Assembly (NCBI GenBank): GCA_017517325.1
Contig: JAFWZW010000024.1
Location: 20,092 to 84,091 of the forward strand
Reading direction: 5' to 3'
DNA length: 64,000 bases
From: Clostridia bacterium
GTDB lineage: Bacteria; Bacillota; Clostridia; Oscillospirales; SIG627
Within the stretch, counting starts at the first letter, position 1. Every line of letters begins with the position of its first letter. Of the stretch, positions 44,739-57,535 are shown one piece after another. The notes beneath the pieces are model-generated. The model was not told the origin of the DNA. It worked only from the letters and a program-made list of their open reading frames with translations, and did not search any database. Made by a program: the position numbers and the translations under genes.

Positions 44739-44995
44739 AAAAAGTGCAAATGTTCCTTTCTTCTACAAAACAGACGCAATTATAGCACAAAAAATTACTC
44801 AATGCAAGAAGAAAAGAGCATCCTTTCACTTATGCCATGTGCCTTTACATTCAAATAATAAAAATATTTTTTAAAAATATCATTTTTCGCCAAAAAAATT
44901 TCGGATTTTGTATTGCAAAACAAAATTGTTTGTGGTATACTGTGGCCATTGTAATGATAAAAGAATGCGATCTAACTGCAGAAAAGAGGACCAAT

Positions 44996-46213
44996 ATGAC
45001 AAACAGCGGTATTTCCGATAAACTGACACTGGTACATTCCGATATACGCGGCCCCGTTTACGAGGAAGCACTACGGATGCAAAACGCCGGAAAGAAGGTA
45101 TTAAAACTAAACACAGGCAACCCTGCCGCCTTCGGCTTTGCCATGCCTGAAAGCGTAAAGGAAGCGCTTACGCGCGGAATGGATGGGGCAGTAGCCTACT
45201 GCGACCTAAGAGGAATGCCCGAATCCCGACGGGCGATCCTTTCCTATCATACGGGAAAAGGCATTAAAGACCTTGAGATGGATGACATTTTCATCACCAA
45301 CGGCGTCAGCGAAGGGGTGCAGATGGTGTGCCTCTCTTACCTGAGCTACGGAGATGAGATCCTCCTTCCCTCTCCCAACTACTCTCTGTGGGAAAACTGC
45401 ACCCACCTTGCCGGGGCAAAGCCCGTTTTCTATCAGTGCCGTGAGGAAAACCAATGGATGCCCGACCCTGAGGATATTCGCAGTAAGGTAACGGCAAAGA
45501 CCCGTGCCATTCTTATCATCAGCCCCAACAACCCCACCGGTGCGGTATACTCCAAGGAAGTAATGGAGGAGATCATCGCCATTGCAAGAGAGCACGATCT
45601 TGCAATCTTTTCAGACGAGATCTACGACCGTCTTGTTATGGACGGTCTCAAAGCCATTTCCCCCGCTTCCCTTGCCCCCGACCTTTTGACCGTAACCTTC
45701 AACGGTCTTTCGAAATCTCACATCGTTTGCGGCTTCCGTTGCGGCTGGATGGTATTTTCCGGTCCCAAGGAAAAAAGACTTCCTTTGGAGGAAGCAGTAA
45801 CGAAGCTTTGCTCCATGCGCCTTTGCTCCAACGCTTTGGCACAGCTTGTGGTACCTGCGGCTTTGGAGGACCCGGAATCCACCCGTGAAATGCTGGTACC
45901 CGGCGGAAGGCTGTACGAGCAGAGAGAGACAACCTGCAGCGTGCTGGAAAAGATCGAGGGGATCAGTTTCGTGAAGAATCGTGCCGCCTTTTATCTTTTC
46001 CCCAAGCTGGATAAGGAGCGCTTCGGCATTCACAACGATCAGCAATTTGCCCTTGACCTGCTTCACGCCAAGAACCTTCTGATCATTCCCTCCTCCGGCT
46101 TCGGCTGGAAGGGGAACGACCATTTCCGTATCGTAATGCTTCCCGAAAAAGAAGTGTTGCGCAGTGCAATGGAAGATCTAGGAGATTTTCTCTCCGATTA
46201 CAAGCAAAAATAA
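44996..46213 (+). CDS. PLP-dependent class I aminotransferase (AlaA-like)
   Basis: DIRGPV, KLNTGNP, NGVSE, PNNPTGAVY, SDEIYD, GLSKSH..GFRCGW. Confidence 0.9.
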   Translation: MTNSGISDKLTLVHSDIRGPVYEEALRMQNAGKKVLKLNTGNPAAFGFAMPESVKEALTRGMDGAVAYCDLRGMPESRRAILSYHTGKGIKDLEMDDIFITNGVSEGVQMVCLSYLSYGDEILLPSPNYSLWENCTHLAGAKPVFYQCREENQWMPDPEDIRSKVTAKTRAILIISPNNPTGAVYSKEVMEEIIAIAREHDLAIFSDEIYDRLVMDGLKAISPASLAPDLLTVTFNGLSKSHIVCGFRCGWMVFSGPKEKRLPLEEAVTKLCSMRLCSNALAQLVVPAALEDPESTREMLVPGGRLYEQRETTCSVLEKIEGISFVKNRAAFYLFPKLDKERFGIHNDQQFALDLLHAKNLLIIPSSGFGWKGNDHFRIVMLPEKEVLRSAMEDLGDFLSDYKQK

Positions 46214-46219
46214 ACATAT

Positions 46220-46257
46220 GAGGCCGTAAAAAACGAGCGTTTTTACGGCCTCTTTTT
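46220..46257 (+). terminator. intrinsic terminator
   Basis: GAGGCCGTAAAAA-acgagcg-TTTTTACGGCCTC followed by TTTTT. Confidence 0.8.
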
Positions 46258-46373: not shown

Positions 46374-46402
46374 TTGCAAAAACCGCAGCAATTTGTTATA
46401 AT
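46374..46402 (+). promoter_or_regulatory. sigmaA promoter of the fumC-hdr-flx-frd operon
   Basis: TTGCAA (46374-46379) - 17 nt with TG - TATAAT (46397-46402). Confidence 0.65.
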
Positions 46403-46469
46403 TACGATAACTGTTTTGTTGGTGAAACCCCAAAATACATCTTCATTAATATAATAAACGGAGGACATT

Positions 46470-47845
46470 ATGGAATATCGCATTGAACACGACTCTATGG
46501 GTGAGGTTAAGGTACCTGCCGACAAGTACTGGGCAGCACAGACGGAGCGTAGCCACGAGAACTTTAAGATCGGCGTAGGGATTGAGACTATGCCCCGCGA
46601 GATCGCCCGCGCTTTCGGCGTTCTGAAAAAGGCCGCCGCCATTGCCAACCACGCCTTGAAGCCCGAAAAGATGACCGCTGAAAAGCTTGACGCCATTCAA
46701 AACCTTGCGACGAGGTAATGGCAGGAACCCTCAACGATCATTTCCCCCTGGTGGTATGGCAGACCGGTTCCGGTACCCAATCCAATATGAACGCAAACGA
46801 GGTCATTGCCAACCGCGGCAACGAGCTTGCAGGTCAGAAACTTCTGCATCCCAACGATGACATCAATATGTCCCAAAGCTCCAACGATACCTTCCCTACC
46901 GCGATGCACATTGCGGCCGTAGAGGCAATTGAAGATAAGCTGTTCCCCGCTATGGATCTTCTCATTTCCACACTGGTTCGCCTTGAAAAGGAAAATGAGG
47001 GCATCGTAAAGAGCGGCAGAACGCACCTGCAGGATGCAACCCCCATTCGTTTCTCTCAAGAGATCAGCGGCTGGAGAAGCAGTCTGGAAAAGGACAAGGA
47101 GCTTTTGAACGCTTCCCTGCCTCACCTGAAGGAACTGGCATTGGGTGGCACCGCCGTTGGTACCGGTCTCAACGCTCCCAAGGGCTTTGACGAAAAGGTT
47201 GCCGAGGCCGTATCCCAGATCACCGGCAAAAACTTCGTTACCGCAGACAACAAATTCCACGCTCTTACCTCCAAGGATGAATTGGTATTTGCTCACGGTG
47301 CTCTGAAGGCATTGGCCGCAGACCTGATGAAGATCGCCAACGACATTCGCTGGCTGGCAAGCGGTCCCAGACTCGGCATCGGTGAGATCTTTATTCCCGA
47401 AAACGAGCCCGGCTCCTCCATTATGCCCGGCAAGGTGAACCCCACCCAATGTGAAGCAGTGACCATGGTTGCCGTTCAGGTTATGGGTAACGACGTGGCC
47501 GTTGGTATGGCCGCAAGTCAGGGCAACTTCGAGCTGAACGTATTTATGCCCGTTTGCATTTACAACTTCCTGCAGTCCGCACGCCTTTTGGCAGAATCCA
47601 TCGTTTCCTTTAACGATAACTGCGTAACCGGCATTCGCGCCAACAAGGAAAAGATGCACGATAACCTTCACAACTCTTTGATGCTGGTAACTGCGCTGAA
47701 TCCCTACATCGGTTATGAAAACGCTGCAAAGACCGTAAAAAAGGCGTTTAAGGAAGATATTTCCCTGAAAGAAGCCTGCGTTGCACTGGGCTTTTTGTCC
47801 GCGGAAAAATTTGACGAGGTTTTCCGTCCTGAAGATATGGCTTAA
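46470..47845 (+). pseudogene. fumC: class II fumarate hydratase split by a 1-nt frameshift (true lesion or sequence error)
   Basis: 5' part [22 protein letters not shown] (46470-46718); 3' part [31 protein letters not shown] (46718-47845); frames differ by one base near 46704. Confidence 0.9.
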
Positions 47846-47871
47846 TTTTCAAAACCAGAAAGGAACTCACA

Positions 47872-48648
47872 ATGGTTTTTCAATATTATCCCGGTTGCAC
47901 CCTGAAGACCCGCGCCAAAGAGCTTGACCGCAAGGCAAGACTTTGCGCCGAAGCGCTGGGCGTTCAATTGGAAGAGATCAAAGATTGGCAATGCTGTGGC
48001 GGCTGTTACCCGGTTGCAAAGGACGAGATCGCCACCAAGCTTTCCGCCGTTCGCGCTATGATGGCTGCAAAGGATGCCGGCACCCCTGTGGTTACCGTTT
48101 GCTCTGCCTGCCACAACGTATTGAAGCGTACCAATCACGATATGCAGACGGATGAGGTGATCCGCGACCGTGTCAACCGCTACCTGAAGCCTGATGTACC
48201 CTACGCAGGGGAAGGCGAGGTTCTGCATTTTCTTGAAATGCTCCGTGACAAGGTCGGCTTTGATACCATCCGCGAAAAGGTAAAGAATCCCCTGACGGGC
48301 AGAAAGATCGGCGCTTACTACGGCTGTCTTCTGCTCCGTCCCGGCAAAGTAATGGCCTTTGACGATCCTGAAAACCCCTCTATTATGGAGGACTTCATTA
48401 CCGCTTTGGGTGCAGAGGCAGTCAGATACCCTTACCGCAACGAATGCTGCGGGGCATATCTTGCTCTGGAGGATCAGGCCATCACCAAAAAGAAAAGCTC
48501 CGCCGTACTGCACAGTGCTAAATGCGCCGGTGCACAGGAAGTGATCACCGCCTGCCCCCTTTGCCTTTATAACCTGCAGAAGTGCGGGGACGATCTCCCC
48601 GTGGTCTATTTCACCGAGCTTCTCTTTGAAGCCCTGGGTCTGGAATAA
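47872..48648 (+). CDS. hdrB: heterodisulfide reductase subunit B-like protein (two CCG domains)
   Basis: YYPGC...QCCG...CSAC and YYGC...ECCG...ACPLC. Confidence 0.9.
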   Translation: MVFQYYPGCTLKTRAKELDRKARLCAEALGVQLEEIKDWQCCGGCYPVAKDEIATKLSAVRAMMAAKDAGTPVVTVCSACHNVLKRTNHDMQTDEVIRDRVNRYLKPDVPYAGEGEVLHFLEMLRDKVGFDTIREKVKNPLTGRKIGAYYGCLLLRPGKVMAFDDPENPSIMEDFITALGAEAVRYPYRNECCGAYLALEDQAITKKKSSAVLHSAKCAGAQEVITACPLCLYNLQKCGDDLPVVYFTELLFEALGLE

Positions 48649-48660
48649 GGAGGCGTAGCC

Positions 48661-49047
48661 ATGGAACAGAAAAACCTGAAAGAAGAGATTCTCCGCATCA
48701 GCGGTGTTAACCCCAGAAAATGTATGAAATGCGGAAAATGCAGTGGTACTTGCCCCTCCTATGAAGAGATGGATTTTCACCCCCACCAGTTCGTTTATAT
48801 GGTGGAAAGCGGGGATATTGAGCCTTTGATGGCATCCGGATCCCTTTACCGCTGTCTTACCTGCTTTGCCTGCGTGGAGCGTTGCCCCCGTCAGGTAGAG
48901 CCGGCAAAGCTCATTGAAGCAGTACGTCTTACGGTAATCCGTCAGCAGGGACAAAATCATTTGAAGCCCGATCAGCTCCCCGGTATGCTGGATGAGGATA
49001 TGCCTCAGCAGGCGCTGGTCTCTGCAATGAGAAAATTCGCAAAATAG
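48661..49047 (+). CDS. hdrC: heterodisulfide reductase subunit C-like 2[4Fe-4S] protein
   Basis: CMKCGKCSGTCP and CLTCFACVERCP. Confidence 0.9.
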   Translation: MEQKNLKEEILRISGVNPRKCMKCGKCSGTCPSYEEMDFHPHQFVYMVESGDIEPLMASGSLYRCLTCFACVERCPRQVEPAKLIEAVRLTVIRQQGQNHLKPDQLPGMLDEDMPQQALVSAMRKFAK

Positions 49048-49056
49048 GAGGATACT

Positions 49057-51048
49057 ATGCAAAGAATCGGCGTTTTCGTTTGCTGGTGCGGTAGCAACAT
49101 TGCCGCAACCGTTGATGTAAAAGCCGTAGCCGAAGCTCTGGGAAAAGAGCCCGGCGTGGTTTATTTCGAAGATTATCAATATATGTGCTCCGAGGAAGGA
49201 CAGAACAAGATCAAAAACGCCATCCGTGATTACAAACTCACCGGCGCCGTGATCTGCTCCTGCTCTCCCCGTATGCACGAAAACACCTTCCGTAAGGCTG
49301 CCGCCGCAGCAGGCATCAACTCCTTTATGGTGGAGATCGCCAACATCCGCGAGCAATGCTCCTGGATCCACAAGGACAAGGTCAGCGCCACGGAAAAGGC
49401 TATTATTTTAGGCAGAGCCGCCATTGCAAAAGTACACCTGAATGCACCCCTGACCGCAGGTGAAAGCCCCGTAGTCAAGCGCGCACTGGTGATCGGCGGC
49501 GGTATTGCGGGCATTCAGACGGCTCTTGACATCGCCGATGCCGGCTTTGAAGTTGACATCGTGGAAAAGAAGCCTACCATCGGCGGCAAAATGAGCCAGA
49601 TCGACAAGACCTTCCCCACCCTGGACTGCGCCGCCTGCATTCTTACTCCCAAAATGGTTGACGTTGCCCAAAACGAAAAGATCCGCATTTTCTCCTACAG
49701 CGAAGTGGATGCGGTCAAAGGCTTCGTGGGGAATTTCAAGGTCTCCATTCGCCGCAAGGCAAGATTTGTAGATGAAGTAAAATGCACAGGCTGCGGTCTC
49801 TGTACCGAAAAATGCCCCCAGAAAAAGGTTCCCAATGAATTCAATTTAGGGCTGGATCAGAGAAGAGCCATTTACATCCCCTTTGCTCAGGCCGTTCCCA
49901 AGGTTGCAACCATTGACGCTGACTACTGCACCATGCTGAAGACCGGCAAGTGCGGCGTTTGCTCCAAGGTTTGTGCCGCAGGGGCCATCGACTACAAGCA
50001 AAAGGATACCTTTGTGGAGGAGGAATACGGCGCCATCGTAGTGGCAACGGGCTTTAACCCCATTGAACTGAAAAAATACGACGAGTTTGCCTATTCCCAA
50101 TCTCCCGACGTTATTACCTCTCTGGAATTTGAACGGATCACCAACGCCGCAGGCCCCACCGGTGGCACCCTGCTTCGTCCCTCCGACGGGACCCACCCAA
50201 AAAAGATCGTATTCGTACAGTGCGTGGGCAGCCGTGAAGACGGAGGCGGATGCGGTAAGACGTACTGCTCCAAGATCTGCTGTATGTACACCGCCAAGCA
50301 CGCTATGCTTACCAGAGAAAAATACCCCGATACAGAGGTTTACGTATTCTACATTGACGTTCGTACCCCCGGCAAGAGCTTTGATGAATTTTATCGCAGA
50401 GCGGTAGAGGAATACGGCGTTCACTACGTTAAGGGTATGGTTGGTAAGGTTTCTCCCGAAAACGGAAAACTGATGGTGCGCGCTTCCGATCTCATCGAAG
50501 GCAAGCAGTTGAACATTGACGCAGATCTGGTGGTACTTGCTGCAGCCATTGAGCCGGATCAGTCCGCAAGACCTCTTGCTACGATGCTCACCGCTTCGAT
50601 GGATACCAACGATTTCTTTACGGAAGCACACCCCAAGCTTCGCCCTGTGGAAAGCCCCACCGCCGGCATTTTCCTTTCCGGCTGTTGTCAGGGCCCCAAG
50701 GATATCCCCGAAACGGTTGCACAGGCTTCCGCTTGCGCCGCCAAGGTCATCGGCCTTTTGGCAAAGGACAAGCTCACCTGTAACGCCTGCGTGGCTCATT
50801 CTTCTGAAATGCTCTGTAACGGATGCTCCACCTGCGAAAAAGTTTGCCCCTACGGTGCCATCAGCTACGAGGAAAAGGAATTCAGAATGCCCGATCGCAC
50901 CACAAGAGTTCGCCGTGTTGCCAGCGTTAACCCTGCCGTTTGCCAGGGCTGTGGCGCTTGTACCGTTGCCTGCCCCAGCGGCGCAATGGATCTTCACGGC
51001 TTCTCCAACAGACAAATCATGGCGGAGGTAGATGCAATATGCAAATAG
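49057..51048 (+). CDS. hdrA: heterodisulfide reductase subunit A (bifurcating flavoprotein)
   Basis: RIGVFVCWCG, CSCSPRMHE, NIREQCSW, GGGIAG, KTFPTLDCAAC, SLEFER, YCSKICCMYTAK, GPKDIP, two ferredoxin domains. Confidence 0.95.
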   Translation: MQRIGVFVCWCGSNIAATVDVKAVAEALGKEPGVVYFEDYQYMCSEEGQNKIKNAIRDYKLTGAVICSCSPRMHENTFRKAAAAAGINSFMVEIANIREQCSWIHKDKVSATEKAIILGRAAIAKVHLNAPLTAGESPVVKRALVIGGGIAGIQTALDIADAGFEVDIVEKKPTIGGKMSQIDKTFPTLDCAACILTPKMVDVAQNEKIRIFSYSEVDAVKGFVGNFKVSIRRKARFVDEVKCTGCGLCTEKCPQKKVPNEFNLGLDQRRAIYIPFAQAVPKVATIDADYCTMLKTGKCGVCSKVCAAGAIDYKQKDTFVEEEYGAIVVATGFNPIELKKYDEFAYSQSPDVITSLEFERITNAAGPTGGTLLRPSDGTHPKKIVFVQCVGSREDGGGCGKTYCSKICCMYTAKHAMLTREKYPDTEVYVFYIDVRTPGKSFDEFYRRAVEEYGVHYVKGMVGKVSPENGKLMVRASDLIEGKQLNIDADLVVLAAAIEPDQSARPLATMLTASMDTNDFFTEAHPKLRPVESPTAGIFLSGCCQGPKDIPETVAQASACAAKVIGLLAKDKLTCNACVAHSSEMLCNGCSTCEKVCPYGAISYEEKEFRMPDRTTRVRRVASVNPAVCQGCGACTVACPSGAMDLHGFSNRQIMAEVDAICK

Positions 51049-51476
51049 AAGAAAAGTTTGAGCCGACCATCGTAGCTTTCTGCTGCAACTGGTGCTCTTA
51101 TGCAGGCGCTGACCTTTCCGGTACCAACCGTCTCCAGTATCCTGCCAACGTAAAGATCATCCGTGTTCCCTGCTCCTGCAGAGTGAATCCTATGTTTATT
51201 CTTCGCGCATTTCAGCGCGGAGCTGACGGTGTTATCCTTTGCGGTTGCCACCCCGGTGACTGCCATTACACCACCGGCAACTACTATGCACGCCGCCGTA
51301 TGACCCTGCTCTTTTCTATGCTGGATTTTCTGGGCATTGAAAGAGAGCGCACCCGCGTTGAATGGGTCAGCGCCGCAGAAGGTGCCAAGTTTGCTGCCAC
51401 TATGAACGATTTCGTCGCCACCGTTACCCGTTTGGGTAAAAACCGGAGATTGGAGGATCTGAGATGCAAAAAGTAA
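51039..51476 (+). CDS. flxD: MvhD/FlxD [2Fe-2S] subunit
   Basis: AFCCNWCSYAGAD, RVPCSCR, GCHPGDCHY, WVSAAEG; GGAGG RBS inside the end of hdrA. Confidence 0.9.
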   Translation: MQIEEKFEPTIVAFCCNWCSYAGADLSGTNRLQYPANVKIIRVPCSCRVNPMFILRAFQRGADGVILCGCHPGDCHYTTGNYYARRRMTLLFSMLDFLGIERERTRVEWVSAAEGAKFAATMNDFVATVTRLGKNRRLEDLRCKK

Positions 51477-52432
51477 TTCGTGAAAAAGCCATCGAGCTCC
51501 TGAGATCCGGCAAGGTCGACCGTGTATTGGGCTGGAAAGAGGGCGAATTTTTCTACGATCAGACGCCCCATCTGTTCCTCTCCCCCGAGGAAGTGGAACG
51601 CACGTTCGTTTATAACGGTTTTTCAGGTGCCAACCTTTCCAAGTATCTGGTAAAGGAGGGCTTGAAAGAGGGCGTCGTTGCCGTATTCCTGAAGCCCTGT
51701 GATACTTATTCCTTCAGCCAGCTCTTGAAGGAGCACCGCATTGCAAGAGATAAGATTTGGGCAGTGGGCATCCCCTGCGAAGGAAAGCTGGATATCGAGC
51801 TCCTCCGCAAAATGGGGATCCGCGGCATTAAGACCATTGAGGAAAAAGGAGACGAGCTTCTCGTTTCTACCATTTACGGTGAAAAGACCGTAGCGAAGAA
51901 GGACGTACTGGCAGAACGCTGTGCCAACTGCAAGAGCCGCAAGCACGTTCTTTACGACGAGCTTTTGGGTGAAGAGGGAGAGGTTTTAGATTCCGCCCGC
52001 TTCGATCAGATCGAAAAGCTGGAGCAAATGACCAGCGAGGAGAGATTTGCTTTCTGGCAGAACGAGCTTTCCCGCTGTATCCGCTGTAACGCCTGCAGAA
52101 ACGTATGTCCCGCCTGCACCTGCGAAAAATGTGTATTTGACAATGCAGATTCAGGCATTGCCTCCAAGGCACCCGCATCCTCCTTTGAGGAGCAGAATTT
52201 CCACATCATCCGCGCCTTCCACGTGGTTGGAAGATGCACCGACTGCGGCGAATGCTCCCGCGTTTGCCCTCAGGGGATCCCGCTCCATCTGATCAACCGA
52301 AAGTTCATCAAGGATATCAACGCCTTTTACGGTGCTTATCAGGCTGGGGAAAACCCAGACGAAAGAGCGCCTTTGACCAATTACAGCACCGAGGACATGG
52401 AGCCCGGTGATGTATTCAAGAAGGGAGAGTAA
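51464..52432 (+). CDS. flxC: FlxC-like Fe-S subunit
   Basis: KPCD, CANC, CIRCNACRNVCPACTC, RAFHVVGRCTDCGECSRVCP; position after flxD. Confidence 0.8.
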   Translation: MQKVIREKAIELLRSGKVDRVLGWKEGEFFYDQTPHLFLSPEEVERTFVYNGFSGANLSKYLVKEGLKEGVVAVFLKPCDTYSFSQLLKEHRIARDKIWAVGIPCEGKLDIELLRKMGIRGIKTIEEKGDELLVSTIYGEKTVAKKDVLAERCANCKSRKHVLYDELLGEEGEVLDSARFDQIEKLEQMTSEERFAFWQNELSRCIRCNACRNVCPACTCEKCVFDNADSGIASKAPASSFEEQNFHIIRAFHVVGRCTDCGECSRVCPQGIPLHLINRKFIKDINAFYGAYQAGENPDERAPLTNYSTEDMEPGDVFKKGE

Positions 52433-52436
52433 GAAA

Positions 52437-53456
52437 ATGAAAAGCATTTCGTTATCAAATCTCCCCGAGCTTCTTTCCGCCATTGCAGCAAAGGAAGCGC
52501 TTTACCTCCCTGTTGACACCAAGGAAGGGGCCGAATATAAGGCCTATGCCGAGGGAGACAGCCTTTCCCTTGCCTGCAACACCAACCGCTCCGCCAAGGA
52601 TTTCTTCTTCCCTCAGGTGGAGGATATGGCGGCCTTCAAGGTGGAAGGCAAAAAGATCGAGATCATTGACGTTCGCAAGGAAACCGAGGATTTCGTGATC
52701 TTTGGTGCCAGAGCCTGCGACGTAAAGAGCTTTGAGGTCCTGGATCGGGTATTCCTTGCGGACCCCGTTGATACCTTCTATAAAAATCGCAGAGAGCATA
52801 GCACCGTGGTTGCCCTTGCTTGCTCTGCACCGGAAGAGACCTGCTTCTGTTCCTCCTTTGGGATCGACGCAGCTGAGCCTCAGGGTGATGTAAGCGCCTG
52901 GATCGCAGAAGGCAGAATGTTCTTCAAACCCAACACCCAAAAGGGTGAAACACTCCTTTCCGCCCTTTCCGCGCTTTTGGAAGAAAGCGACGGGGCAGCC
53001 GTGGAAAAAGCAAAGGAAGAGACCCGCACGATTATGGGTCAGCTTCCCCTGCAAAACCTGCCCACGGAGCATTTTAAGCCCGAAAAGCTGATGGAGCACT
53101 TCAACGACCCCAAATGGAAGGAGCTTTCTCAGGCCTGCATTGGTTGCGGTACCTGCACCTTCGTTTGCCCCACCTGTCAGTGCTTCGACATTCGTGATTT
53201 CGACACCGGAAACGGGATCCAGCGTTACCGCTGCTGGGATTCCTGTATGTATTCCGACTTTACGCAAATGGCGGCCGATCAGCCCAGACACACGCAGTTG
53301 GAGCGCTTCCGCCAGAGATTTATGCACAAGCTTGTGTACTACCCTGCCAACAACGAAGGGCTCTTCGGCTGTGTAGGCTGTGGCAGATGCCTTGCAAAGT
53401 GCCCCATTTCCATGAACATTGCAAAGGTTATGAAAGCATTGGGAGGTGACAAATAG
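52437..53456 (+). CDS. flxB: FlxB/AsrA-like Fe-S subunit
   Basis: GARACD, TCFC, CIGCGTCTFVCPTCQC, RCWDSC, RFRQRFMHK, CVGCGRCLAKCP. Confidence 0.85.
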   Translation: MKSISLSNLPELLSAIAAKEALYLPVDTKEGAEYKAYAEGDSLSLACNTNRSAKDFFFPQVEDMAAFKVEGKKIEIIDVRKETEDFVIFGARACDVKSFEVLDRVFLADPVDTFYKNRREHSTVVALACSAPEETCFCSSFGIDAAEPQGDVSAWIAEGRMFFKPNTQKGETLLSALSALLEESDGAAVEKAKEETRTIMGQLPLQNLPTEHFKPEKLMEHFNDPKWKELSQACIGCGTCTFVCPTCQCFDIRDFDTGNGIQRYRCWDSCMYSDFTQMAADQPRHTQLERFRQRFMHKLVYYPANNEGLFGCVGCGRCLAKCPISMNIAKVMKALGGDK

Positions 53457-54283
53457 TGGAAAAAGAAGCTTTGATTCCCGAGATCGGTATCGTTACCGAC
53501 ATTCGCATCGACACCCCTGACGTTCGCACCTTCCGCGTGGTTACACCCGACGGTAAAAAGCCCTTCGTACACATTCCCGGTCAGTGCGCTATGCTTTCCA
53601 TTCCCGGCGTAGGTGAGGCGCTGTTTTCCATTACCTCCTCCCCCACCAACACCGAATTTATGGAGTTTTCCATTAAGAAGTGCGGCTGTGTTACCAGCTT
53701 TCTTCACTCCATTGAGCCCGGCCAGTACGTAACCATCCGCGGCCCTTACGGCAACGGATTCCCGGTGGAGAGCGCCTTTAAAGGCAAGGACATGCTCTTC
53801 GTGGCAGGCGGTATCGGCCTCGCGCCCTTGCGCTCCGTTATCAATTACTGCCGCCATTACCGCGAAAACTACGGCAAGATCGACATCGTTTACGGCTCCC
53901 GCTCTATGCAGGATCTGGTGGATTACAACGAGATCGTGGAGGAATGGTGCAAAGAGGACGGGATCAGCGTTCATCTGACCATTGACCGCGAACAACCCGA
54001 ATGGGACGGCCACGTAGGCTTCGTGCCCAATTTCGTAAAGGAATTGCAGTTCGACACCAACAAGACCGCTGTTCTCTGCGGCCCGCCCATTATGATCAAA
54101 TTCACCCTTGCAGGACTTCAGGAAATGGGCTTCAAGAAGGACCAGATCTACACCACCCTTGAGATGCGTATGAAATGCGGCATCGGTAAATGCGGCAGAT
54201 GCAACTTAGGTGACAAGTTTATTTGCAAAGACGGACCGGTCTTCCGCTTCGATCAGCTGGAAGAGCTTCCGGATGAATATTGA
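53456..54283 (+). CDS. flxA: FlxA/AsrB-like FAD/NAD(H)-binding subunit with [2Fe-2S]
   Basis: RGPYGNGF, AGGIGLAP, CGPPIM, MKCGIGKCGRC...CKDGPVF. Confidence 0.88.
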   Translation: MEKEALIPEIGIVTDIRIDTPDVRTFRVVTPDGKKPFVHIPGQCAMLSIPGVGEALFSITSSPTNTEFMEFSIKKCGCVTSFLHSIEPGQYVTIRGPYGNGFPVESAFKGKDMLFVAGGIGLAPLRSVINYCRHYRENYGKIDIVYGSRSMQDLVDYNEIVEEWCKEDGISVHLTIDREQPEWDGHVGFVPNFVKELQFDTNKTAVLCGPPIMIKFTLAGLQEMGFKKDQIYTTLEMRMKCGIGKCGRCNLGDKFICKDGPVFRFDQLEELPDEY

Positions 54284-54308
54284 TTCTTCGGTGAAAGGAT
54301 AAAGTACA

Positions 54309-54983
54309 ATGGAACAAACCGTTAATATTTTTCTGTACGGCAAAAAATACGCCGTACCCTCCAATCTTACCATTATGGCCGCAATGGAATATGCCGGCTA
54401 TCAGCTCACCCGCGGTTGCGGATGCCGCAACGGCTTCTGCGGTGCCTGCGCTACCATCTACCGCATCAAGGGTGACACCGAACTGAAGGTCTGCCTCGCC
54501 TGCCAGACCAAGGTGGAAGAGAATATGTACATCGCAACCCTTCCCTTCTTCCCGCTGGTAAAGCAGGTTTACGACATTCAGAAGATCGGTCCTACCGAAC
54601 AGATCATGATGCAGCTTTACCCCGAGATCTACAGCTGTATCGGCTGCAACGCCTGCACCAAGGCTTGCACCCAGAGCCTGAACGTTATGCAGTACATTGC
54701 ATACGCACAGAGAGGCGAATATGAAAAGTGCGCGGAAGAGAGTTTTGACTGCGTTATGTGCGGTGTTTGCTCCTCCCGTTGCCCCGCAGGCATCAGTCAT
54801 CCGCAGGTGGCAATGCTGGCAAGAAGACTCAACGGAAAATACCTGGCTCCCGAATGCGGCCACTTAAAGGACCGCGTGAAAGAGATCAACGACGGTACCT
54901 TCCAGGAGCTGATGGAAGCTTTGATGCAAAAGCCTCTGACAGAGCTGAAGGAACTGTACAACAACCGCGAGATCGAGAAATAA
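54309..54983 (+). CDS. fumarate reductase/succinate dehydrogenase Fe-S subunit (FrdB/TfrB-like)
   Basis: CRNGFCGAC...CLAC [2Fe-2S]; CIGCNACTKAC and CVMCGVCSSRCP. Confidence 0.85.
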   Translation: MEQTVNIFLYGKKYAVPSNLTIMAAMEYAGYQLTRGCGCRNGFCGACATIYRIKGDTELKVCLACQTKVEENMYIATLPFFPLVKQVYDIQKIGPTEQIMMQLYPEIYSCIGCNACTKACTQSLNVMQYIAYAQRGEYEKCAEESFDCVMCGVCSSRCPAGISHPQVAMLARRLNGKYLAPECGHLKDRVKEINDGTFQELMEALMQKPLTELKELYNNREIEK

Positions 54984-54995
54984 GGGGGGATCACG

Positions 54996-56591
54996 ATGTA
55001 TAACGAAAAAATGCGCGAATCCATGGCAAAGGTGGAAGCAAACCGCGAAGCCAACGCAAAAATGGATCCCAGAAGAATGACCGCCGAGGAGAAGGAAACG
55101 CTGCTTGCAACCTTCCACCCCGACTATATTGAAAACCAATTTACCACCCTGACTGTAGGCCCCAACAAGGGCGAAAAGGTTCCCCTTGAGCTTTGCGCTT
55201 TGCTGGAAGCCAATTCCAGAGTAAAGGGATTGCAGATCGATCTGGAAAACCCTACCTACGACGTTGACGTTCTCATCATCGGTGGCGGCGGTGCCGGATC
55301 CAGCGCGGCCATCGAAGCCCACGAAAAGGGCGCAAACGTTATGATCGTTACCAAGCTTCGTATTGGTGACGCCAATACGATGATGGCTGAGGGCGGTATT
55401 CAGGCGGCTGACAAGCCCAATGACTCCCCTGCGATCCACTATATCGACGCTTTAGGCGGCGGTCACTTTGCCAACAAGCCTGAGCTTCTTTACCGCCTTG
55501 TAACCGAAGCACCCGATGCCATTGCCTGGCTGAACGATTTAGGCGTTGAATTTGACAAAATGCCCGACGGTACTATGGTCACCACCCACGGTGGCGGTAC
55601 CAGCCGCAAGAGAATGCACGCCGCAAAAGACTATTCCGGTGCCGAGATCATGCGTACCCTGCGTGATGAGGTATTAAACCGCGATATTCCCGTTGTGGAT
55701 TTCACCAGTGCCATTGAGCTGATTCTGGACGACAAGGGCAATGCCGCAGGCGCCGTTCTTATGAATATGGAAACCGGCGAAATTATGGTGGCACGTGCCA
55801 AAACCGTGATCATTGCCACCGGCGGTTGCGGAAGACTGCACTATCAGGGCTTTCCCACCTCCAACCACTACGGTGCCACCGCAGACGGTTTGGTTCTGGG
55901 CTACCGCGCCGGGGCCAAGCTTCTCTATCAGGACACCCTGCAGTATCACCCCACCGGTGCCGCTTACCCCGAACAGATCTTCGGCGCGCTGGTTACCGAA
56001 AAGGTACGCTCTCTGGGTGCTATGCTCATCAACGTTGACGGCGTTCCCTTTATGAATCCTCTGGAGACCCGTGACGTTTCCGCCGCTTCCATCATTCGCG
56101 AATGCAAGGAGCGGGGCAAGGGCGTTGAGACTCCCGAGGGCTACGGCATCTGGCTCGACACGCCTATGATCGAGCTGAAGGGCGGCGAGGGCACCATCGA
56201 AAAGAGAATCCCCGCCATGATGAGAATGTTCGGCAAATACGGTATTGACATCCGCAAAGAGCCCATCCTCATTTACCCCACCCTGCACTATCAGAATGGC
56301 GGTCTTGAGATCAAGGCTGACAACGAGACCTGCATTCCCGGTCTTTACGTTGCAGGGGAAGCCGTTGGCGGTATTCACGGCAGAAACCGCCTGATGGGCA
56401 ACTCCCTTTTGGATATCATCGTATTCGGCAGAAGCGCCGGTAAGAACGCCGCCGACAAGGCAAAGGACGTTGTACTGGGCAAGCTGACTCTGGATCACGT
56501 CGAAAAATTCGCCAAGGAAATGGAAGATGCCGGCATCAAAACCGACGTTGTTTCCCCAAAACTCCTTCCCGATTACACCAGAAAGGTTTAA
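54996..56591 (+). CDS. fumarate reductase flavoprotein subunit (FrdA/TfrA-like)
   Basis: GGGGAG, AEGG, ATGG, QYHPT, TEKVR, TRDV, HYQNGG, HGRNRLMGNSL. Confidence 0.9.
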   Translation: MYNEKMRESMAKVEANREANAKMDPRRMTAEEKETLLATFHPDYIENQFTTLTVGPNKGEKVPLELCALLEANSRVKGLQIDLENPTYDVDVLIIGGGGAGSSAAIEAHEKGANVMIVTKLRIGDANTMMAEGGIQAADKPNDSPAIHYIDALGGGHFANKPELLYRLVTEAPDAIAWLNDLGVEFDKMPDGTMVTTHGGGTSRKRMHAAKDYSGAEIMRTLRDEVLNRDIPVVDFTSAIELILDDKGNAAGAVLMNMETGEIMVARAKTVIIATGGCGRLHYQGFPTSNHYGATADGLVLGYRAGAKLLYQDTLQYHPTGAAYPEQIFGALVTEKVRSLGAMLINVDGVPFMNPLETRDVSAASIIRECKERGKGVETPEGYGIWLDTPMIELKGGEGTIEKRIPAMMRMFGKYGIDIRKEPILIYPTLHYQNGGLEIKADNETCIPGLYVAGEAVGGIHGRNRLMGNSLLDIIVFGRSAGKNAADKAKDVVLGKLTLDHVEKFAKEMEDAGIKTDVVSPKLLPDYTRKV

Positions 56592-56597
56592 TTCGTA

Positions 56598-56634
56598 TAA
56601 AAAAAGAAGATCACGAACGTGATCTTCTTTTTTT
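56598..56634. terminator. bidirectional terminator ending the redox operon
   Basis: AAAAAAAGAAGATCACG-aa-CGTGATCTTCTTTTTTT. Confidence 0.85.
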
Positions 56635-56647
56635 GTTTGCTTATCTT

Positions 56648-57508
56648 TTATACCGCGGGAACTTCCCAAGGGTACTCCAGCGCGTAGTTGGCGCAGGTTT
56701 TAATGATCTCTTTCATTTCAGCATCCAGGATCAGATCCCCTTCGGGAACGTAATGTGCCTGGCGGTACTGAGCAGGAAGCATATCCAGTTTTACTTCTTC
56801 AATGGGCTTACCGGTAAACTGTGCATAGAAAGTGTAAGAAGCCATAATTCTACCGAAATCCGACAGATGGGTGTAATCACGGTAGATCCGATCCTGCGGG
56901 ATCTTCAGCACGTGAGCGGCATAGAAAATGGCGGCGCCGGTGCAAATATGCTTAGTATAGGTAGGATCGGGAAGGATGTTCTCTTTTGCGGTATTGGTAT
57001 AAACGCCGAATTGAACGAAGGGATCGTGGCCGTAAGCTTCAACCAAAAAACTCTTAATGGTCTTAGGGGGCTTTCTCCACCAATCATCGGAAAAGAACTT
57101 CTCGTCATTGGGGTTGGGCCAGGAGGTATGCCAAGCAAAAACGTGCTCCGAGGGAACGTGGGCGTTTACATATTCCTCAAGACTGCGGCGGGCCTCCAGA
57201 TTGAGTTTTTCCGCTTGCATATCGCGTTTACCCGGCTGGAGAAAGATCATATCCCAATCCTGATCCTCCAAAGCGCCCTGCATGGTGTACCCACGTTTGC
57301 GGGTATTGGTGCCGTCACCGTTGCTTCTGTAATAGTCGTAAACGCTTTGGTTTTGGGCAGAAAAATCTACGTGCTGCCGGATCAAGCACCCGCTGTAATA
57401 CAAAAAACCGATGGTATACGGCTGTTCATACCCCTGTGCGTTAAACACGCGGGAGAGGTGATGACAAACGTCGTTAGAATGGCTGTTTCCAAGAATCAGA
57501 AATTTCAT
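56648..57508 (-). CDS. SGNH/GDSL-type hydrolase (DUF4886-like)
   Basis: ILGNSHS, LYYSGC, WDMIFLQ, RDYTHLS; start could instead be 57520. Confidence 0.75.
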   Translation of the reverse strand: MKFLILGNSHSNDVCHHLSRVFNAQGYEQPYTIGFLYYSGCLIRQHVDFSAQNQSVYDYYRSNGDGTNTRKRGYTMQGALEDQDWDMIFLQPGKRDMQAEKLNLEARRSLEEYVNAHVPSEHVFAWHTSWPNPNDEKFFSDDWWRKPPKTIKSFLVEAYGHDPFVQFGVYTNTAKENILPDPTYTKHICTGAAIFYAAHVLKIPQDRIYRDYTHLSDFGRIMASYTFYAQFTGKPIEEVKLDMLPAQYRQAHYVPEGDLILDAEMKEIIKTCANYALEYPWEVPAV

Positions 57509-57535
57509 TATTTTTCTCATTTGATAGATGATAAT

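Follow-up and report, generated by a model that had tools for sequence, protein, structure and literature searches.

The locus described here raises the question of how fumarate might be reduced in the cytoplasm, independently of quinone, and whether part of the energy released could be kept as reduced ferredoxin. It lies in a window of 64,000 nucleotides (nt) from Clostridia bacterium (Oscillospirales, SIG627; assembly GCA_017517325.1, contig JAFWZW010000024.1, positions 20,092 to 84,091 of the forward strand). Within this window, whose numbering we use throughout, ten genes join a fumarate hydratase (FumC), the seven subunits of a FlxABCD-HdrABC module and a two-subunit fumarate reductase (FrdBA). 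The original prediction, made from the sequence alone, had proposed that these genes form one operon for electron-bifurcating, soluble fumarate respiration. We consider it somewhat better than an even bet, with a probability of roughly 0.55, that they encode a quinone-free NADH:fumarate/ferredoxin bifurcating complex in which the Hdr subunits are wired directly to FrdBA, with no thiol carrier in between.

Ten Genes in a Conserved Order

An open reading frame (ORF) listing, together with Pfam and NCBIfam scans of the window, placed the ten genes on the + strand between 46374 and 56636 in the order fumC-hdrB-hdrC-hdrA-flxD-flxC-flxB-flxA-frdB-frdA, just as originally described. Their spacing, which had been given as gaps under 30 nt or overlaps, indeed ranged from -13 to +26 nt: from fumC to frdA it was 26, 12, 9, -10, -13, 4, -1, 25, and 12 nt once the starts of flxD and flxB had been refined. 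The same domain scans found no membrane anchor, hydrogenase or DsrC domain in the operon, again in agreement with what had been claimed.

To assess the conservation of this order, we used a one-genome-per-species scan, which returned at least 592 genomes with a close FrdA relative. The best 80 of these at least 592 loci were analyzed; all came from metagenome-assembled genomes (MAGs) of gut or rumen Clostridia, with 75-91% FrdA identity. When gene order was counted in the 54 loci whose sequence extends 8.7 kb or more upstream of frdA, all ten genes were colinear in 53, so that hdr-flx and frdBA are strongly co-conserved. More distant members, with 64-71% FrdA identity (L159-L162), keep the nine genes hdrBCA-flxDCBA-frdBA, while fumC does not stand beside hdrB, and the link between Hdr, Flx, and Frd thus appears to be older than the link to fumC.

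A Fumarate Reductase Pair Related to TfrAB

The product of frdA (54996..56591, + strand, 531 aa) is a flavoprotein with flavin adenine dinucleotide (FAD) and capping domains, preceded by an N-terminal extension (residues 1-87) that carries conserved FHPDY and VGPNKG motifs. A Pfam scan of it returned FAD_binding_2 only (E 4.6e-72), and a Succ_DH_flav_C domain was not found. Its best NCBIfam match was to the methanogen thiol:fumarate reductase subunit TfrA (NF004900), over model positions 5-425 of 546, but at 348 bits, far below the cut-off of 718, it failed to qualify as a TfrA. The classical FrdA/SdhA and NadB models ranked after TfrA, all below their own cut-offs, with the NadB model TIGR00551 at 279.7 bits against a cut-off of 452.75. 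Nevertheless, H318, E335, R338, R359, D360, H431, and R465 were invariant in 45 of 45 sequences spanning two clades, and in HMMER alignments with solved Sdh flavoproteins they face the His of HPTG, the TE..R motif, the Arg of RD, the His of HY, and the Arg of NRL, residues that we take to be the catalytic set of Sdh/Frd flavoproteins. At the position of the classical covalent-FAD His, the same 45-sequence alignment has an invariant Asn (Asn127). Covalent FAD is needed for succinate oxidation in the classical enzymes, and an Asn at this position fits a reductase-only enzyme. The AlphaFold model of FrdA (predicted local distance difference test [pLDDT] score 93.8, predicted template modeling [pTM] score 0.92) had E. 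coli FrdA (1kf6_A) as its nearest solved fold, with E 2.2e-37 and a template modeling (TM) score of 0.73 over 450 columns.

Its partner FrdB (54309..54983, + strand, 224 aa) is an Fe-S subunit with matches to the Fer2_4 and Fer4 families and to the N-terminal region of TfrB (E 6e-10). It has a 2Fe-2S domain and two full CxxCxxCxxxC motifs, which are conserved, and no 3Fe-4S-type motif; judged by this Cys pattern, it would hold two 4Fe-4S clusters and no 3Fe-4S cluster. A Pfam domain scan of FrdB found no CCG domain, the CCG domains being on the separate HdrB only. Because FrdB, HdrC, and HdrB match successive parts of the fused TfrB chain among the NCBIfam models, the trio resembles a TfrB split over three proteins. 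A natural FrdB-FrdA fusion also occurs (P0125, 727 aa), with Fer2_4 at residues 6-76, Fer4 at 108-162, and FAD_binding_2 at 293-674.

A Complete Flx-Hdr Module

All seven FlxABCD-HdrABC subunit types are encoded together according to the Pfam and NCBIfam matches, and their Cys ligands are invariant. HdrA (49057..51048, + strand), an FAD and Fe-S subunit, is full length at 663 aa: although it scores 788.9 bits with the HdrA2 model, whose cut-off is 1100, it aligns over residues 3-660 to the solved HdrA 5odc_A (E 2.9e-204) and holds all domains of this solved bifurcating enzyme, both ferredoxin-type domains included. The LEFER and CCMYTAK motifs, to which the original prediction had pointed as the Glu/Lys context of the bifurcating FAD, are present and align to LELER and CCMYAMK of 5odc_A. 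HdrB (47872..48648, + strand; Pfam CCG) has two complete CCG motifs and 10 Cys residues (C9, C41, C42, C77, C80, C152, C192, C193, C228, and C231), all of them invariant in 41 sequences; its best NCBIfam matches, MFR_anch_SdhE at 160.9 bits and CoB_CoM_SS_B at 140.1 bits, are both below cut-off. HdrC (48661..49047, + strand), a 4Fe-4S dicluster protein, combines two 4-Cys motifs, whose 8 Cys are invariant in the 41-row alignment, with a conserved C-terminal tail.

On the Flx side, flxD (51039..51476, + strand) encodes an MvhD-type protein with an FlpD domain (PF02662, E 1.6e-55), and its start was refined to the ATG at 51039 on the basis of start codon and ribosome-binding site. It is followed by flxC (51464..52432, + strand), for an Fe-S protein of the 4Fe-4S dicluster families, and by flxB (52437..53456, + strand), for a HydB/AsrA-like Fe-S protein with a Fer4_22 match and with ShyB and AsrA scores (166.8 and 142.3 bits) that are both below their cut-offs; its start was set to the ATG at 52437, an alternative start at 52407/52410 being possible. 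Finally, flxA (53456..54283, + strand) encodes an FNR-like and HydG/AsrB-like protein with FAD/NAD(P)H-binding and 2Fe-2S domains (NAD_binding_1, FAD_binding_6, and DHODB_Fe-S_bind), and is the presumed entry point for NADH.

FrdB Is Predicted to Dock on HdrB and HdrC

The original prediction had left two routes from HdrCB to FrdBA, a direct one and one through a thiol/disulfide carrier. We folded HdrB, HdrC, and FrdB together, with a 41-row alignment for each from the same loci, and compared the outcome with three controls. With FrdB as the partner the score was 0.81 (runs 0.82, 0.81, and 0.78), while the best of the three controls reached 0.01. Among solved complexes, 58 of 80 attained that mark, as did 2 of 110 mismatched pairs, although these counts apply here only approximately because our own alignments were used. 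The runs agreed in at least 94% of contacts, and the pLDDT of the partner was at least 74.

In the model, the HdrB interface (residues 9, 12-14, 38-41, 43, 54-55, 57-58, and 104) surrounds the first CCG motif (C9, C41, C42), the FrdB interface (97-114, 125-137, and 159-160) surrounds the first 4-Cys motif (C110, C113), and the conserved C-terminal tail of HdrC (103-127) lies within the predicted interface. Eight of the 14 HdrB interface residues are invariant, compared to 62 of 258 overall, although this is the flank of a cluster site, which is conserved anyway. No like pair appears to have been solved. The relatives of HdrB that are solved are, by sequence, methanogen Hdr complexes only (E 1e-39 to 1e-45), and those of FrdB are weak (RnfC Fe-S domain, E 1.9e-7; SdhB, from 4e-4); hence, it is unlikely that the model passed by memory of this pair. 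The predicted contact speaks for electrons passing directly from HdrB into FrdB and makes a diffusible thiol carrier the less likely of the two routes.

Carrier Genomes Almost Never Encode UbiA

The host genome is a small-genome gut MAG of 1.74 Mb that is 80.8% complete, a figure that applies to every negative result given for it here. A check for quinone genes, dsrC, Rnf, and an anchor encoded elsewhere gave no match to the UbiA prenyltransferase, to DsrC (PF04358) or to Sdh_cyt, the FrdC and FrdD Pfam models being outside the search; RnfD was present, as were an [FeFe] hydrogenase and an ATP-dependent phosphoenolpyruvate carboxykinase (PEPCK). There is one SdhA-like gene and one HdrA gene in this genome, and both are in the operon.

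We also took an even sample of the class Clostridia, comprising 299 other genomes, in which a carrier was defined by an FrdA-like gene at E <= 1e-100. Carriers made up 66 of the 299 genomes and were spread over 42 of 176 genera; in the window's own order, one of 11 genomes was a carrier. When UbiA was scored above cut-off and the carrier and noncarrier genome tables were compared by hand, UbiA was found in 3 of the 66 carriers (G093, G187, and G236) but in 85 of the 233 noncarriers. With 63 of 66 carriers thus lacking UbiA, the enzyme would be quinone-independent almost everywhere. RnfD was found in 46 of the 66 carriers.

A Proposed Route from Malate to Succinate

What we infer about electron flow, its splitting at HdrA and the overall stoichiometry is as follows. 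The ten genes would provide a cytoplasmic, quinone-independent route from malate to succinate, with FumC making the fumarate. NADH would be oxidized at FlxA, and its electrons would pass via FlxB, FlxC, and FlxD to the FAD of HdrA, where the pair would be split. One electron would be driven uphill to ferredoxin through the ferredoxin domains of HdrA; the other would run downhill through HdrC and the two noncubane clusters of HdrB, enter the 4Fe-4S/4Fe-4S/2Fe-2S chain of FrdB directly, and arrive at the noncovalent FAD of FrdA, which would reduce fumarate. Fumarate would thus take the place of the heterodisulfide, and a thiol carrier would be unnecessary. The net reaction would be 2 NADH + fumarate + oxidized ferredoxin -> 2 NAD+ + succinate + reduced ferredoxin, and the reduced ferredoxin could be used by Rnf or by the [FeFe] hydrogenase. 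The interpretation given in the original prediction is in part supported, by the co-conservation of the genes, the genome context, the intact residues, the full-length HdrA, and the docking, while bifurcation itself is inferred. The word respiration, on the other hand, was too strong: RnfD is present in the host genome but in only 46 of the 66 carriers.

A Sister Clade with a NuoF-Like Partner

A search with P0130, a representative protein that shares 48% identity with FrdA, yielded 74 loci from environmental metagenomes (L085-L158) that form a sister clade. As in the operon, frdB lies directly upstream of frdA (60 of 74 loci), but none of the 74 loci, 22 of which have at least 8.7 kb upstream, contained a match to hdrA, hdrB, hdrC, flxB, flxC or flxD at E <= 1e-6; a distant FlxA-like match was seen about 6.7 kb downstream in 2 of the 74. 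Instead, among the 50 loci that extend at least 1.4 kb downstream, 39 have a NuoF-like gene directly following frdA (e.g., L090, 9366-12891). Its 420-aa product has Complex1_51K, SLBB, and NADH_4Fe-4S domains and scores 385.7 bits with nuoF_fam. The frdB-frdA-NuoF-like set probably encodes a three-subunit soluble NADH:fumarate reductase. With FrdBA beside Flx-Hdr in one clade and beside a NuoF-like protein in the other, FrdBA would be a portable, soluble module able to accept electrons from various NADH-oxidizing partners. Since a single 420-aa partner suffices in the sister clade, the retention of seven Flx-Hdr genes suggests an added function, namely ferredoxin reduction, although this is an argument and no proof. 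Near some sister-clade loci we also observed a 2-oxoacid:ferredoxin oxidoreductase (L087, 13021-15941), and an aconitase together with PntA (L095).

Weighing Alternative Explanations

The sister clade can also be read the other way. If a simple NADH module is enough for FrdBA there, Flx-Hdr could be no more than a wire that brings NADH electrons to FrdBA, with HdrA as a conventional flavin relay and no ferredoxin reduced. Judged by standard potentials, the reduction of fumarate by NADH is by itself strongly downhill, and such an enzyme would suit the 20 of 66 carriers (mostly in families f16, f18, and f19) in which no RnfD match was found. In those genomes, Rnf coupling does not appear to operate, so reduced ferredoxin would have to have another outlet, and the coupling would not be universal among carriers. 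What makes us regard a plain NADH:fumarate reductase as unlikely, if worth keeping in mind, is that 53 of 54 loci retain seven genes although a single one would be enough, and that HdrA retains every domain of the solved bifurcating enzyme, including the two ferredoxin-type domains. A slimmer chance attaches to a pair of enzymes joined by a thiol/disulfide carrier, in which Flx-Hdr would reduce a low-molecular-weight or DsrC-like disulfide and FrdBA would act as a TfrAB-like thiol:fumarate reductase. This arrangement is offered as an alternative in the symbiont study PMC11636981; in its favor here are TfrA as the best curated match of FrdA, the TfrB match of the FrdB N terminus, and the two complete CCG motifs of HdrB, the disulfide-reducing site in methanogens. 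However, FrdB has no CCG domain, probably the thiol-oxidizing module of TfrB; a single HdrB would have to serve both half-reactions; no DsrC match was found in the host genome; and the complex model sets FrdB directly on the CCG site of HdrB.

Two further possibilities concern the substrate and the direction of the reaction. FrdA might act on L-aspartate, as a NadB-type oxidase, or on another enoate, with the linkage to fumC incidental: the NadB models, at 280 bits, are not far under the 348 bits of TfrA, one source labels a homologue as L-aspartate oxidase, and fumC is unlinked in the members with 64-71% identity. We consider this very improbable and rejected a NadB role, as the TIGR00551 score is under its cut-off and the host genome has no NadA match; moreover, FrdA always has an Fe-S partner next to it or fused to it, 53 of the 54 close loci have the linkage to fumC, and PMC7282089 describes this operon as the source of fumarate reductase in the succinate producer Pseudoclostridium thermosuccinogenes. 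Operation in reverse, with succinate oxidation driven by reduced ferredoxin (confurcation) and NADH as the product, seems scarcely credible. Flavin-based bifurcating enzymes are reversible in principle, but the covalent-FAD His on which succinate oxidation depends in classical enzymes is absent, the PEPCK in the genome fits a reductive branch, and no match was found in the host genome to methylmalonyl-CoA mutase, which the propionate pathway needs; for the same reason, a route from succinate to propionate was rejected.

Several observations weigh against a bifurcating fumarate reductase in this organism, besides the missing RnfD matches and the sister clade. The complex score is the model's own confidence and no measurement. 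A search for RNA runs that carry this stretch of the operon listed none, and co-transcription in this organism is presumptive. For the step from oxaloacetate to malate, which would supply FumC, the candidate is ambiguous: the only Ldh/Mdh-family gene (G000:C2:16312-16818, minus strand; L167 1486-2436) scores as an L-lactate dehydrogenase at 339 bits (cut-off 303.55) and comes near the cut-off of the malate dehydrogenase subfamily (276.9 vs. 283), and no malic enzyme was found in the host genome. The fumC gene is itself broken in this assembly, although it is intact in 4 other assemblies. A biochemical demonstration of a bifurcating fumarate reductase, of which the original prediction knew none, was not found in the literature within the scope of our search, which left out most subscription journals. 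FlxABCD-HdrABC itself is not known to bifurcate electrons in vitro.

Comparison with Known Systems

The quinone-free bifurcating complex that we favor is already in print as a hypothesis (PMC7282089, PMC6315080, PMC11636981), and hypothetical it still is. The original prediction had suspected that the cluster might not be new, and this proved right: the same operon is published for P. thermosuccinogenes and flx-hdr beside tfrAB for tubeworm symbionts. For P. thermosuccinogenes, Koendjbiharie et al. (2020, PMC7282089) describe a succinate operon in which a gene for fumarate hydratase is followed by the seven genes of Flx-Hdr and by two for fumarate reductase, with a further one for a hypothetical protein; according to the RNA sequencing reported there, the operon changes as a whole about 4-fold. 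That paper assumes that NADH oxidation is coupled to the reduction of fumarate and ferredoxin, and cites a 2019 preprint (10.20944/preprints201912.0288.v1) for the proposal. Compared by description, this operon of a Clostridia fermenter has the gene order found here, and differs in its extra hypothetical protein, a possible succinate transporter; here a convergent DUF4886 gene comes next. In the tubeworm symbionts and Thioflavicoccus mobilis, flxABCD-hdrABC is interspersed with korABCD and tfrAB (Rubin-Blum 2019, PMC6315080; Mitchell 2024, PMC11636981). These studies share with our proposal an AB-only fumarate reductase beside Flx-Hdr and direct electron delivery by bifurcation, and in PMC11636981, tfrAB is the one pair that departs from the expression pattern of the cluster. 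However, the symbionts are Gammaproteobacteria that fix carbon by the reductive tricarboxylic acid cycle and have a 2-oxoglutarate:ferredoxin oxidoreductase inside the cluster, whereas the operon described here starts with fumC and lacks kor genes. A 2026 survey (PMC13147460) repeats the flx-hdr/tfrAB proposal and mentions a soluble, five-subunit, NADH-dependent enzyme of Hydrogenobacter thermophilus. This FrdABCDE is likewise described there as cytoplasmic, NADH-fed, and irreversible, with an FrdAB core and extra soluble subunits; it differs from the complex proposed here in that bifurcation is not reported and that it has no HdrA or Flx subunits.

In this H. thermophilus enzyme, attributed to Miura (2008), FrdC and FrdD are reportedly HdrB/C-like and FrdE GltD-like. 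FlxABCD-HdrABC of Desulfovibrio vulgaris (reportedly described by Ramos et al. in 2015, with DsrC as the proposed acceptor) has the same seven subunit types as the module here; in place of a DsrC, for which the host genome gave no match, the operon has FrdBA. The methanogen complex HdrABC-MvhAGD (solved as 5odc, 7bkb, and 8rvu) is alike in its MvhD-type subunit and in HdrA, HdrB, and HdrC, which align end to end, but it is fed by a hydrogenase and reduces CoM-S-S-CoB, while the proposed donor here is the NADH module FlxABC and the proposed acceptor is fumarate, via FrdBA. Methanogen TfrAB, as a soluble, quinone-free enzyme that includes the best curated match of FrdA, is similar as well; in TfrB, however, the CCG domains are part of a single fused chain, whose regions match FrdB, HdrC, and HdrB separately. 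With complex II, finally, FrdA shares the catalytic His/Arg set and the FAD and capping fold (1kf6_A). It departs from complex II in having Asn127 for the covalent-FAD His and in that no Succ_DH_flav_C domain was found, and the host genome gave neither the Sdh_cyt nor the UbiA match that such an enzyme would lead one to expect.

Boundaries, fumC, and Neighboring Genes

The original prediction had bracketed the operon by a single promoter and a terminator. Downstream, a hairpin terminator with an 18-pair stem and a T-rich sequence is present at 56597..56636 (+ strand), and the A-run and T-run at its flanks make it two-way. Upstream, a predicted sigma-70-like promoter lies at 46374..46402 (+ strand; TTGCAA, a spacer of 17 nt, and TG-TATAAT, with 10 of 12 matches and an extended -10). 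It shares the top rank among the 10 such sites of the region and falls within the only long noncoding gap, the 217 nt from an upstream terminator (46220-46252) to the start of fumC. As such sites are no more common than expected by chance (10 found vs. 9.0 +/- 3.1 expected), we call the site promoter-like on the basis of its position and score.

The fumC gene (46470..47845, + strand) encodes a class II fumarate hydratase with Lyase_1 and FumaraseC_C domains, whose C-terminal 375 aa score 613.7 bits with TIGR00979. The gene is present as originally reported, but a frameshift of one base that splits it into two ORFs (46470-46718 and 46718-47845) had been overlooked. Alignment with three relatives showed that one base is absent from this assembly, near 46702/46703 (window 46698-46706). 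An extra G follows 46702/46703 in 4 of 4 near-identical contigs, which come from four gut-metagenome runs of four other studies and show two substitutions in addition; other pieces of the operon are identical to those contigs over up to 3 kb. With the extra base, both parts of fumC join in one frame, as they do in 52 of the 53 related loci in which both parts were found. Because near-identical contigs of four other studies have the extra base, the split is most likely an assembly or sequencing error, or else a rare variant of this MAG. In one related locus, L016, two fumC matches lie in different frames, and residues 77-141 have no match.

Individual loci differ in other respects. In L067 no fumC match was found upstream of hdrB, and in L077 (7623-9314) a gap of 870 nt separates flxA from frdB. 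FrdA of the window shares 80-81% identity with its counterparts in other families of the class (G141, G032), compared to 77% with that of the one carrier found in its own order (G111), and loci labeled Bacteroidaceae (L048) and Treponema (L075) have the same operon with 77-79% identity. This likeness across families and these labels could reflect either lateral transfer or binning errors.

Neither neighboring gene appears to belong to the operon. Upstream, a class I/II aminotransferase gene (44837-46213; best match alanine aminotransferase, 338 bits against a cut-off of 534) was considered as a member and rejected: it has a strong terminator of its own (46220-46252) and is kept upstream in L052 only. 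Downstream ORFs were likewise rejected as an operon member or transporter, since no match was found after frdA in the 80 related loci and the real gene there is a DUF4886 gene on the minus strand (56648-57520), which is convergent on the operon, has the hairpin terminator in common with it, and is conserved in 0 of the 80 related loci.

Implications for Succinate Formation in Gut Clostridia

Beyond the published hypothesis, the present analysis adds the breadth of the operon in gut Clostridia and its near-exclusive occurrence in genomes without UbiA, a predicted FrdB-HdrB contact that speaks against a thiol carrier, a natural fusion of FrdB to FrdA, a sister clade of the NuoF type, an Rnf coupling that seems not to be universal, and a split of fumC that is probably an assembly error. 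A wider generalization can be made tentatively, at somewhat less than even odds: that many quinone-less gut Clostridia (about one fifth of the sampled genomes) make succinate by an uncharacterized class of bifurcating enzymes, in which the outer 4Fe-4S cluster of a portable FrdBA plugs onto the CCG site of HdrB, fumarate standing in for the heterodisulfide with no thiol chemistry, while the same FrdBA sits on a NuoF-like subunit in an environmental sister clade.

Cultured species also carry the operon: Solibaculum mannosilyticum and [Clostridium] leptum are among the named homologues, and P. thermosuccinogenes, for which CRISPR interference exists (PMC9044749), has it too; the question is therefore directly testable. 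If the quinone-free bifurcating complex is real, the Flx-Hdr clade and its sister clade would offer a natural comparison of bifurcating and nonbifurcating enzymes, the CCG clusters of HdrB would be able to serve as a plain electron relay, and fumarate would be added to the few high-potential acceptors that are proven for flavin-based bifurcation. Succinate is a major cross-feeding metabolite of the gut and is usually taken to be formed in Bacteroidota, by fumarate respiration that depends on quinones. Many menaquinone-free Clostridia would then also reduce fumarate, in the cytoplasm, and would save part of the energy as reduced ferredoxin, which could drive Rnf or the formation of H2.

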